Both the position numbers and the translations under genes were made by a program. From NCBI GenBank assembly GCA_046484325.1, contig JAWOJB010000054.1, positions 2,287 to 66,286 on the forward strand: DNA of 64,000 nt, in the 5' to 3' direction. The notes beneath the pieces are model-generated. The model worked only from the letters and a program-made list of their open reading frames with translations, did no database searches and was not told where the DNA came from. This document shows, piece by piece, positions 9,413 to 55,868 of this stretch (positions within the stretch are counted from its first letter, which is position 1; each line of letters begins with the position of its first letter). The DNA comes from Acidimicrobiia bacterium. Lineage in GTDB: Bacteria > Actinomycetota > Acidimicrobiia > Spongiisociales > ZC4RG35.

Positions 9413-11518
9413 ATGGAGCCGATGCAGGACACCGTCGAGTTCGATATCGGCGCGCCGCCGGATGGGGACCCCGTCCGCCCGCTGGTGCTCAACCGCGAGC
9501 TGTCCTGGCTCGACTTCAACAGCCGGGTGCTGGCCCTCGCCGAGGATCCCGATCTGCCGATGCTCGAGCGGGCCCGGTTCCTGGCGATCTGGGGGTCGAA
9601 CCTCGACGAGTTCTTCATGGTGAGGGTGGCCGGGCTCAAGGAGCAGGTGGCCCACGGGGTTCGCGGCATGACCCCCGACGGGCGCACCGCGGTCGAGACG
9701 CTCGAGGGCATCCGCGACGAGGTGAGGTCGCAGGCAGATCGAGCCACCCGGGTGTTCCTCGACGATCTCGCCCCCGGCCTGGCCGCGGCGGGGGTGGCCT
9801 TCTCCGAGTACGCCAGCCTCGACGAGGGTGACCGGGCGTACATGGACCAGCAGTTCCGTGAGCTGGTCTTCCCGGTGCTCACCCCCCTCGCCGTCGACCC
9901 CGCCCACCCCTTCCCCTACATCTCCAACCTCTCCCTCAACCTGGCGGTCACCGTCCGCGACCCGGTGACCGAGGTCATCCGCTTCGCCCGGGTCAAGGTG
10001 CCGCCCAGCCTCCCCAGGTTCGTGGTGATGCCGGACGGTGAGCGGTTCGTGTCGGTCGAGCAGGTGATCGCCTTCCACATGGAGGAGCTCTTTCCCGGCA
10101 TGGAGATCCTCGGCCACGACGCCTTCCGGGTCACCCGCAACGCCGACCTCGAGATCGAGGAGGACCAGGCCGAGGATCTGCTCGCCGCCATCGAAACCGA
10201 GCTGTCACGGCGCAGATTCGGGCGGGCGGTGCGACTCGAGCTCTCCCCGGAGATGGCGCCGAGGGTCAGGGACCTGTTGGTGAGCGAGTTGGGCGTCACC
10301 GAGGACGACGTGTACGTGAACGAGGGGCCGCTCGGCATCGCCGGGCTCGCCGGATTGGCCGACCTCGACCGTTCCGACCTGCTGTGGGAGCCGTGGAGCT
10401 GGGTCACCCAGCCCCGGCTGGCACCGTCGATCGGCGAGCGGCCCGACATCTTCCGCGTGATCCGGGACGGCGACATCCTCGTCCACCACCCATACGACTC
10501 GTTCGCCACCTCGGTGGCCGAATTCATCGCCCAGGCGGCTCGCGATCCGCACGTGCTGGCGATCAAGCAGACGCTGTACCGCACGTCGAAGGACAGCGTG
10601 ATCATGTCGTCGCTGATGGAGGCGGCGAGCCTCGGCAAGCAGGTGGTGGCGCTGGTCGAGTTGAAGGCGCGGTTCGACGAGGAGCGCAACATCGAGTGGT
10701 CCCAGCGCCTGGAGGACGCCGGGGTGCACGTGGTGTACGGCGTGGTCGGGCTGAAGACCCACACGAAGATCGCCCTGGTCGTGCGACTCGAGGACGGCAT
10801 CATCGCGCGATACGCCCATGTGGGGACCGGCAACTACAACGACTCGACGGCCCGCATCTACGAGGACCTGGGCGTCTTCACGGCAGACCCGGACATCGGG
10901 GCCGATCTCAGCGATCTCTTCAACTACCTCACCGGGTACAGCCACCAGCGATCGTTCAGGAAGCTACTCGTGTCCCCGGCCGGAACCCGGCCTGCCCTCC
11001 TCCGGATGATCCGGGAGCAGGCGGCCCAATCCGGCGGCCGGATCTTCATGAAGATGAACTCGCTCGTCGACCGAGAGATGATCGAGACGCTGTACGAGGC
11101 GTCACAGGCGGGCGCCCAGGTCGACCTCTTCGTCCGCGGCATCTGCTGCCTGGTCCCGGGTGTCCCCGGGATGTCCGAGAACATCCGGGTCCGCTCAATC
11201 GTAGGCCGCTATCTCGAGCACTCCCGGGTCTACCGCTTCGGACCGCGCGGCGGCGAGCGGAGCTACTTCATCGGCTCGGCCGACCTCATGCCCCGCAACC
11301 TCGACCGTCGGGTCGAGGCGCTCGCCCCGGTGGAGGACCCGGCGCTCCAGTTCCGCATCGACGAGATCGCCGACGTGGTGCTCGCCGACGACGTGCGCAG
11401 CTGGGAGCTGGGGCCCGACGGCGAGTGGCGCAGGATCCCGACCGAGCGGGGGATCGAGGCCCACCTCACCCTGCGCGGTTTGGCCGAGGCCAGGGCTCAG
11501 GCCCGCACCGAGGCCTGA
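9413..11518 (+). CDS. ppk: Polyphosphate kinase 1
   Basis: 701-aa ORF. NRELSWLDFNSRVL N-terminus, KTHTKIALV phosphohistidine region, two PLD-like C-terminal domains. Confidence 0.95.
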   Translation: MEPMQDTVEFDIGAPPDGDPVRPLVLNRELSWLDFNSRVLALAEDPDLPMLERARFLAIWGSNLDEFFMVRVAGLKEQVAHGVRGMTPDGRTAVETLEGIRDEVRSQADRATRVFLDDLAPGLAAAGVAFSEYASLDEGDRAYMDQQFRELVFPVLTPLAVDPAHPFPYISNLSLNLAVTVRDPVTEVIRFARVKVPPSLPRFVVMPDGERFVSVEQVIAFHMEELFPGMEILGHDAFRVTRNADLEIEEDQAEDLLAAIETELSRRRFGRAVRLELSPEMAPRVRDLLVSELGVTEDDVYVNEGPLGIAGLAGLADLDRSDLLWEPWSWVTQPRLAPSIGERPDIFRVIRDGDILVHHPYDSFATSVAEFIAQAARDPHVLAIKQTLYRTSKDSVIMSSLMEAASLGKQVVALVELKARFDEERNIEWSQRLEDAGVHVVYGVVGLKTHTKIALVVRLEDGIIARYAHVGTGNYNDSTARIYEDLGVFTADPDIGADLSDLFNYLTGYSHQRSFRKLLVSPAGTRPALLRMIREQAAQSGGRIFMKMNSLVDREMIETLYEASQAGAQVDLFVRGICCLVPGVPGMSENIRVRSIVGRYLEHSRVYRFGPRGGERSYFIGSADLMPRNLDRRVEALAPVEDPALQFRIDEIADVVLADDVRSWELGPDGEWRRIPTERGIEAHLTLRGLAEARAQARTEA

Positions 11519-11532
11519 GGGCCTTCGGGCGC

Positions 11533-11616
11533 TTTGCGCATTGCGAGGTGCGCGATGCGCCGGCAATCAACGATCATCCGCCAGCGCACAGCGCACAGCG
11601 CACAGCGCACAGCGGG
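11533..11616. repeat. Two opposed heptamer arrays: (NNTGCGC)x4, a 21-nt spacer, then (CAGCGCA)x4-5
   Basis: tttgcgc attgcga ggtgcgc gatgcgc, then cggcaatcaacgatcatccgc, then cagcgca x4 and cagcggg. The arms are imperfectly complementary, about 21 of 28 positions. Starts 15 nt after the ppk stop. Confidence 0.85.
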
Positions 11617-11636
11617 CCATCAGGCTCCCTCTCAAC

Positions 11637-11720
11637 GTTCACCCTCCGTTCACTCGTCGAGGCCGAGCGAGTTCACCTTGCGGCCGTAGCTTCCTCATCG
11701 CGGGTAGGGATTCACCCTGC
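11637..11720 (+). promoter_or_regulatory. PHO box region: 11-nt direct repeat units GTTCACC upstream of pstS
   Basis: GTTCACCCTCC (11637) and GTTCACTCGTC (11648) are exactly 11 nt apart. Further units are GTTCACCTTGC (11671) and ATTCACCCTGC (11710). pstS ATG is at 11771. Confidence 0.75.
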
Positions 11721-11770
11721 CGCCGCGCCGCACCAGAAGGGGCGCGTCCCTCGAGTCGAGGAGAAATCAC

Positions 11771-12790
11771 ATGACACTCAGGAGCAGATGGGCGGCGCTC
11801 GCGGCCGTCTTCGCTCTCGTCCTCGCCGCCTGTGGCGGTGGTGACGCCGCCGACGACGGAGGCGACACCACGACGACTACGGCAAGCGGAGGCGGTGAGC
11901 AGACCACGACGACCGCGGCCAGCGCGGGCCTGAGCGGTGACGTCCGGATGGACGGCTCGAGCACGGTTGGCCCGCTGTCCGAGGTGGCAGCCGAGCTGTA
12001 CATGCAGAAGGAGCCCGACGTCCGGGTGACGGTCGCCATCTCCGGCACCGGGGGCGGCTTCCAGAAGTTCTGCATCGGCGAGACCGACGCCAACAACTCG
12101 TCGCGGCCGATCAAGGACTCCGAGATCGAGCAGTGCGCCGAGAGCGACATCCAGTACGACTTCATCCAGGTCGCCAACGACGCCCTCTCGGTCGTGATCA
12201 ACCTCGACAACCCCGTTGCATGTCTGACGGTGGAGCAGGTGAGCCAGATCTGGGACGACGGCTCGACGGTCAAGACGTGGGGTGACATCGACGGGTTGGA
12301 CATCCCGGCCGATTTCGCCTCCACCCCCCTGACACCCTACGGCCCGGGATCGGACTCCGGCACCTTTGACTTCTTCACCGAGGAGATCAACGGCGAGACC
12401 GGCCGAATCCGCATCGACTACATCGACATCGGCGAGGACGACCTGGCGGCGGTCAACGCCGTGCAGGGAGATGTCGGAGCGATGGGGTACATCCCGTTCT
12501 CCTACTTCCAGGAGTCGCTCGACAAGGTCAAGGCCGTGGCAATCGACGACGGCAATGGCTGCGTGGAGTCGACCCCCGAGAACGTGCTGAACGGGACCTA
12601 CACCCCGCTGGGCCGGGGCCTGTTCGTGTACTTCAGCGACCTGGCCCTGAGTCGGTTCGAGGTGCTCGACTTCGCCGATTTCTACCTCGACAACGCCCAG
12701 GAGATCGCGGAGCTGGCAGAATTCGTCCCGATGACGGACGAGCAGTTGACCGAGCAGCGCGTGAAGCTCGACGCCCTGGCCGGACGGTGA
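11771..12790 (+). CDS. pstS: Phosphate ABC transporter substrate-binding lipoprotein PstS
   Basis: Lipobox LVLAAC, Thr-rich linker, PstS-like GSSTVGP and TGGGF segments. First gene of the pstSCAB order. Confidence 0.9.
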   Translation: MTLRSRWAALAAVFALVLAACGGGDAADDGGDTTTTTASGGGEQTTTTAASAGLSGDVRMDGSSTVGPLSEVAAELYMQKEPDVRVTVAISGTGGGFQKFCIGETDANNSSRPIKDSEIEQCAESDIQYDFIQVANDALSVVINLDNPVACLTVEQVSQIWDDGSTVKTWGDIDGLDIPADFASTPLTPYGPGSDSGTFDFFTEEINGETGRIRIDYIDIGEDDLAAVNAVQGDVGAMGYIPFSYFQESLDKVKAVAIDDGNGCVESTPENVLNGTYTPLGRGLFVYFSDLALSRFEVLDFADFYLDNAQEIAELAEFVPMTDEQLTEQRVKLDALAGR

Positions 12791-55812: not shown

Positions 55813-55868
55813 GGTGCGACGTGCGACGTGGGATGTGGGACGTGGGACGTTGGACGTTGGACGTGAGA
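55813..55868. repeat. Tandem heptamer array, 8 units, with stepwise unit drift
   Basis: ggtgcga cgtgcga cgtggga tgtggga cgtggga cgttgga cgttgga cgtgaga. Lies between the dnaK stop (55878-55880) and the grpE start. Confidence 0.9.

Follow-up and report, generated by a model that had tools for sequence, protein, structure and literature searches.

Opposed heptamer arrays between ppk and pstS in an Acidimicrobiia genome: a predicted ladder hairpin that probably evolves as repeat DNA

The stretch of DNA analysed here (64,000 nucleotides, referred to as the window) contains the gene for a polyphosphate kinase, ppk1 (9413..11518, plus strand), assigned on the basis of its Pfam PP_kinase N, middle, C1 and C2 domains (E-values from 1e-34 to 1e-73) and closed by a TGA stop codon at 11516-11518. 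It is followed on the same strand by pstS (11771..12790), which encodes a phosphate-binding protein (Pfam PBP_like_2) and is the first gene of pstSCAB. A PHO-box dimer, GTTCACC-N4-GTTCACT (GTTCACCCTCCGTTCAC, 11637..11654, plus strand), is found upstream of pstS as an exact match and is conserved in relatives, and additional PHO-box units lie at 11671-11677 and 11710-11716. A -10-like hexamer, TAGCTT (11687..11692, plus strand), which would be part of the pstS promoter, is invariant in the alignment of close relatives, and family relatives carry TAnnTT at its position. The promoter region also contains the invariant CGTAGCTTC, and the 5' untranslated region has a long conserved GC-rich leader (GCGGG.AGGGATTC...CCGCCGCGCCGCACCAGA) that, judging from these properties, may be a structured leader.

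Two heptamer arrays in opposite orientation occupy the interval between the ppk stop codon and the PHO boxes. The post-stop flank (GGGCCTTCGGGCGC, 11519..11532, plus strand), which according to the foldings and an inverted-repeat search belongs to the outer stem of the predicted fold (partner 11614-11625), leads into a left arm that begins 14 nt past the ppk stop and consists of four degenerate NNTGCGC units (tttgcgc/attgcga/ggtgcgc/gatgcgc, 11533..11560, plus strand), one of which has the core TGCGA instead of TGCGC. The right arm (11582..11616, minus strand) is made of four perfect CAGCGCA units (11582-11609) and a terminal CAGCGGG (11610-11616), that is, of TGCGCTG units on the minus strand, and is recovered by TRF with a period of 7, 4.7 copies and 100% matches. 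It is followed by a 3' flank of the hairpin without U-tract (CCATCAGGCTCCCTCTCAAC, 11617..11636, plus strand). The inverted-repeat search delimits the arms slightly differently, as 35-nt segments at 11530-11564 and 11580-11614 with a complementarity of 77% and a gap of 15 nt. Re-reading the sequence showed that the units and coordinates given in the earlier note are exact to the base, and the Pfam-defined genes together with the exact PHO-box dimer confirm its description of oppositely oriented arrays located in just the interval that separates the ppk stop from the PHO boxes. The 21-nt spacer that forms the hairpin loop (11561..11581) has no ORF. A 16-mer in the loop, TCAACGATCATCCGCC (11567-11582), agrees at 13 of 16 positions with the sequence that opens the PHO-box region, TCAACGTTCACCCTCC (11632-11647); we treat this resemblance as chance because CGATCA is the only stretch of the spacer that the sister species has in common with it.

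Folding of the element as RNA gave a minimum of -61.9 kcal/mol (z -4.39), and none of 200 dinucleotide shuffles was as good; the segment 11516-11633 reached a z of -5.08 against shuffles, the foldings tried ranged from -4.4 to -5.5, and folding as DNA gave a z of -3.83. The ladder anticipated from the letters appears in both RNA and DNA folds, as GC rungs of 4-6 bp with 2x2 internal loops between them. The opposed arrays are thus confirmed, with a predicted stability far beyond chance, and the hairpin is real, on paper, in the population represented by the window. An Rfam search with the element returned chance-level matches only (the microRNA family RF03992, with 27 bits versus a gathering score of 90), which we rejected. 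Every paired arm position belongs to the TGCGC/GCGCA core, and the left-arm dinucleotides (at, gg, ga, cg) oppose CA and stay unpaired. Since pairing is confined to the shared core and the variable dinucleotides are not complementary, the arms are no recent inverted copy of each other, and a recent inverted duplication by template switching could be ruled out. The palindrome would instead be the consequence of any two such arrays in opposite orientation, whose TGCGC/GCGCA cores can base-pair. In this population, the transcribed 3' untranslated region of ppk could fold as an interrupted GC ladder of some 26 bp.

The genome assembly (2.45 Mb, 70% GC, 87% complete) is rich in such repeats. Sixty arrays with a period of 7 and at least 3.5 copies were detected, versus 1-8 each for periods 4, 5, 8, 10 and 11. 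There are two main types of unit, GCGC+3 (TGCGCNN), present at approximately 31 loci, and ACGT+3 (CACGTCT and variants), and many of the genome's arrays begin 0-10 nt past a stop codon, their gene context having been judged with local stop-codon and GC3 tests. The earlier note had regarded the ppk-pstS interval as the only place in the window where both orientations occur together, which holds; it does not extend to the genome, where there are at least six further opposed pairs that fold as ladders. Opposed pairs lie at 14243-14297 of contig C69, with co-directional genes on either side, at 7367-7422 of C88, flanked by convergent genes, and at C31 13752-13778, C12 9670-9746, C21 18883-18960, C60 6543-6612 and C53 22281-22418. 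Neighbouring arrays form about seven opposed pairs as against none or one in the same orientation. All three spaced GCGC pairs of the genome are convergent and none is divergent, and spaced convergent GCGC pairs were found in this genome only when compared with 120 other family genomes, in which a search in either order gave a single match, the self-palindromic TGCGCAG array of genome G108.

When an ACGT-core array lies no more than 30 nt from a stop codon, its C-rich strand is as a rule the sense strand of the gene that ends there (19 of 21 arrays, binomial p 2e-4); examples are found at 55814-55865 of the window and at 21164-21244 of contig C36. By its composition, such a C-rich, G-poor tail directly past the stop would suit a Rho loading site. 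A general orientation rule, under which the sense of an array would follow that of the abutting gene, does not extend to the GCGC-core arrays (approximately 7 sense versus 5 antisense), and the opposed arm of the ppk-pstS element is therefore left unexplained by it. Arrays of four TGCGCNN units are patchily distributed in the family (4 of 61 genomes). Genome G069 carries many TGCGCCA arrays, and G055 has TGCGCTG, the unit of the right arm at the ppk-pstS locus.

Close relatives of the locus were gathered by look-ups of exact proteins, a scan of metagenomes with the ppk C-terminus having returned only relatives of at most 66% identity; in the look-up with pstS, the exact protein sequence was absent from the record. 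In family-level genomes, pstS is a frequent downstream neighbour of ppk and has these PHO boxes as well, the element itself being absent there. Across 27 ppk loci that are followed by a PHO-box dimer, the distance between the ppk stop and the dimer ranges from 0 to 159 nt and is only 0-10 nt in six of them. The element of about 100 nt is therefore a lineage-specific insertion, and a structure at this site is no general requirement. Two contigs with a 100% identical ppk differ from the window in the right arm only, by 2 and 9 missing nucleotides, differences that, between contigs so nearly the same, might stem from errors of sequencing or assembly in repeats; the 9-nt-shorter variant lacks one unit plus GC, the rest of the intergenic region being identical. 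The sister species (ppk 93% identical, four samples with identical sequence) has four left units, a different 19-nt spacer and four AGCGCAC units, and a third lineage has four left units and only two right ones. The left arm thus has four units in every element-bearing relative and the right arm four, about three or two, in a series that covers contigs and lineages with ppk 100% and 92-93% identical. Compensatory changes of unit number in both arms, which the earlier note had proposed to look for, were not observed in this series.

At the same site, an 83% relative carries three CGTCTCA units together with a GC hairpin, GGCGCC-GTCA-GGCGCC (locus L106, 2797-2841). Directly past the ppk stop, genome G013 has at least 11 copies of CACGTCT (L004), and another relative has five GTACTGA units along with a GC hairpin (L029). 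Arrays with different palindromic 4-mer cores (ACGT, GTAC, GCGC) are found directly past the ppk stop in four separate lineages, and arrays of period 5, 8 or 9 were found there in none of 102 loci.

The alignment of six distinct sequences comprises 26 ladder pairs, of which 21 are invariant, none is compensatory and five are broken without compensation. Fold z-scores are -5.1 and -7.1 in the population of the window, -2.3 in the 9-nt-shorter variant, and -0.10 and -1.49 in the two sister lineages. In the comparison with the 93% relative, identity amounts to 68% for the element (58% if its right arm is left out) and to 77% for the third codon positions of ppk; the pstS promoter and 5' untranslated region (11634-11770) are, at 85%, above these third positions. 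On these alignments, the element is best described as fast-evolving and apparently largely unconstrained repeat DNA beside a constrained promoter, and the predicted hairpin as neither conserved nor maintained through compensation. Whole 7-nt units are added to or lost from the perfect right arm, point substitutions alter the degenerate left one, and neither arm follows the changes of the other. Two species share the same 28-nt right arm, an identity that has a chance of 0.07% if its 28 sites are taken as independent (0.77^28, an arithmetic based on the 77% third-position identity) and of 16% if the array behaves as one concerted 7-nt unit (0.77^7). It needs no selection: if an array evolves in concert, the relevant unit is the 7-nt one (0.77^7 = 0.16).

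We consider it probable (around 0.6) that the interval holds a lineage-specific insert, about 100 nt long, in which two convergent GCGC+3 heptamer arrays evolve as repeat DNA, and that this insert is no selected insulator. The ladder would then probably be at most an incidental 3' stem-loop, acting as a pause site, an exonuclease barrier or a weak terminator, and the ppk mRNA may plausibly be affected at its 3' end in such an incidental way. Three observations count against this reading in its simplest form. The excess of opposed and convergent pairs in the genome may point to selection or to some mechanism with a preference for hairpins, the opposed-array architecture has been kept at the site across approximately 11% nucleotide divergence of ppk, and the identical right arms of the two species would be improbable if their sites were independent.

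In agreement with this preferred reading, repeats of the same kind have been described in other bacteria, where heptamer repeats are generally over-represented across prokaryotes (Mrazek, Guo & Shah 2007, as summarised in PMC4692102). The closest described systems are the convergent heptamer pairs of Xanthomonas (GGGAATC) and Nostoc (GGGGAYT) (Rehm et al. 2015, PMC4692102). In Xanthomonas, the GGGAATC arrays mostly have four units, with a strong bias to positions that adjoin or overlap stop codons, and there are 70-75 cases in which two convergent arrays make inverted repeats (PMC4692102). The features by which such arrays are recognised are found here as well, namely three or more head-to-tail units, a genome-wide excess of period 7, a close convergent pair and polymorphism in unit number. 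As in the Xanthomonas pairs, the unit has 7 nt and about four copies, lies intergenically near a stop codon, and occurs convergently on opposite strands. In contrast to them, our element is built from a GC-rich unit whose core, GCGC, is palindromic and which lacks the potential to form G-quadruplexes; its host is an uncultured member of the Acidimicrobiia with a few dozen arrays instead of about 180, and the arms match in the 5-nt core only. By analogy, then, the locus corresponds to the convergent heptamer-array hairpins of Xanthomonas in a gene-less, arms-only form. REP/BIME elements (RAYT) and MITEs resemble the element in being imperfect palindromes outside genes, located at 3' ends, where they can stabilise the mRNA upstream, whereas the arms described here are tandem arrays of variable length, and terminal inverted repeats with a target-site duplication are lacking. 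We rejected an assignment to these families, since the element is not repeated in the genome, where the arrays alone give matches (best non-self match 32 nt, E-value 1e-4), and a Y1 (RAYT) transposase (PF01797) was not found in the 87%-complete assembly.

A functional insulator or terminator, in which the ladder would halt or pause RNA polymerase coming from ppk and leave pstS to its PhoP-dependent promoter alone, is in our opinion unlikely. The position of the element is suggestive, with a very stable hairpin immediately past the ppk stop and 20 nt ahead of the PHO boxes, and its stem amounts to the GC-rich hairpin of an intrinsic terminator (-61.9 kcal/mol, z -4.4). Moreover, ppk has no PHO-box dimer of its own, so that read-through into pstS would be Pho-independent, and a GC hairpin of some sort is present at the same place in several relatives (L106, L011, L018 and L029). 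Canonical terminators made of a hairpin and a T-run are not enriched in the window (four found versus 3.4 expected), so non-canonical signals would be needed. The earlier note had held that the ppk transcript must be insulated from the pstS promoter, for which we found no support. In the six of 27 loci where the spacing is 0-10 nt, the PHO box follows the ppk stop too closely for any structure to fit in between, none of the 26 ladder pairs shows compensatory evolution, the folds of the sister species are no better than shuffles, and the element diverges faster than the synonymous sites represented by ppk third codon positions. The tail that follows the stem, CCAUCAGGCUCCCUCUCAAC, has no U-tract, and scans of 11300-11900 with sigma-70 promoter and terminator consensus sequences found nothing. 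In bacteria, dnaK and grpE are usually co-transcribed, and heptamer arrays also occur within the dnaK-grpE gene pair of the window (55814-55865). The mycobacterial RNA polymerase, the best-studied one among actinobacteria, needs a U-tract in vitro (PMC3993855). The lack of a U-tract, this requirement of the mycobacterial enzyme and the arrays within dnaK-grpE are among the reasons why we rate an insulating role low. Intrinsic terminators, including the U-tract-less hairpins proposed for actinobacteria, do share with the element a GC stem-loop that directly follows a stop codon and precedes the next promoter, but its stem is interrupted every 5 bp, a U-tract of the 7-9 nt expected is missing, and the structure is unconserved in relatives.

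Inverted heptamer arrays also flank a family of genes in these genomes, those with the domain PF05635 (S23p or "23S rRNA intervening-sequence protein", IVS-type), which encode small four-helix-bundle proteins and are present in 16 of 61 family genomes. A period-7 array lies within 250 nt in 21 of the 27 PF05635 loci and arrays lie on both sides in 13; in 12 of these 13 the two arrays are reverse complements, each cassette having its own unit. The armed loci belong to the set L119-L145 (relatives G013, G055, G068, G108 and others), for example L120 (1428-2010) and L121 (1392-1957). One cassette site, between the genes for a carboxyltransferase and a biotin carboxylase, is filled in several genera by 550-770 nt and is a clean 5-nt gap in the genome of the window and in seven others; the gap in the window's genome (G000, contig C48 9400-9410, L146/L147) can be compared with the loci L171, L155, L156 and L164. 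The cassette of G055 at this site is degraded by an in-frame TGA. Genomes rich in ACGT+3 arrays carry PF05635 in seven of eight cases and the other genomes in nine of 53 (Fisher 2e-4, or 7e-3 when collapsed to genera, with a threshold set post hoc and genomes that are non-independent), and the sole array-rich genome without a PF05635 match is the window's own.

It is conceivable, though we find it quite improbable, that the ppk-pstS element is a gene-less derivative of such a PF05635 cassette, which would have lost its gene after insertion or have been propagated as arms only. The element is flanked by inverted arrays of one heptamer unit as the cassettes are, and these likewise lie past stop codons between co-directional genes. 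By analogy with the intervening sequences of 23S rRNA, the stem would then be an RNA processing site of the RNase III type. The intervening sequence of Coxiella burnetii, for instance, has a 28-bp stem that is cut by RNase III and tandem heptamers that vary among strains (Warrier et al. 2016, PMC4990558), and processing through RNase III would in this respect be a concrete alternative mechanism for such stems. Inverted arms that form a long stem and a variable number of heptamers are common to the element and to the PF05635/IVS cassettes. Unlike them, the element has no ORF, lies outside rRNA, and comes from an assembly in which a profile search and tblastn found no PF05635 match genome-wide. 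This last absence carries little weight and gene absences from the assembly are unreliable, since it is 87% complete and also lacks RNase III, whose domains (PF14622 and PF00636) were not found in it and are present in five of five relatives tested.

Other findings speak against a cassette origin more directly. The 21-nt loop holds no gene remnant, and tblastn with eight cassette proteins gave no PF05635 match in 102 loci downstream of ppk. The link to the cassettes therefore stays an architectural analogy, because neither a gene nor a remnant of one was found at the ppk locus here or in the related loci. In addition, the TGCGCCA-array-rich genome G069 has no PF05635, no arms-only intermediate was seen at the filled and empty cassette site (where one candidate, L170, is masked by N), the ppk-pstS arms match in the core only, unlike most cassette arms, and a stem broken by a 2x2 internal loop after every 5 bp is a poor continuous duplex. 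An extended version of this idea, which we regard as decidedly speculative, would combine a gene-less PF05635-type cassette with a stem that is read or cut as RNA, a right arm whose unit number tunes the uncoupling of ppk and pstS, and an upkeep of the arrays that is linked to cassettes instead of plain slippage. If this were true, the ppk-pstS palindrome would be an evolvable, repeat-built signal at a gene boundary.

That the phased GCGC cores form a protein-binding array of operator sites for a regulator of the pstS promoter or of ppk is very improbable. In favour of this idea, the PHO boxes follow the right arm at a distance of 27 nt, two species have this arm in identical form, and by our own count the cores are better conserved than the variable dinucleotides (17 of 20 versus 4 of 10 positions). 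Against it, GCGC arrays are for the most part found not at promoters but where genes end, in the gaps that separate convergent genes, or within operons, the copy number of the right arm varies among close relatives, and the array family is missing from most family genomes despite the conserved pstS promoter.

Taken alone, and under the preferred reading of an insert that evolves as repeat DNA, the locus adds a further case to the heptamer-repeat hairpins of bacteria, and it illustrates that a striking palindrome can be the by-product of two arrays with a common self-complementary core. It also offers a natural series at a single site, from no insert through different heptamer arrays to opposed arrays with two, three and four units. 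The site is flanked by a constitutive-looking gene and a well-understood PhoP promoter, which makes it convenient for testing the effects of hairpins on transcription and RNA processing. Beyond this locus, the analysis adds a family of Acidimicrobiia to the evidence that pairs inverted heptamer arms with PF05635 genes.
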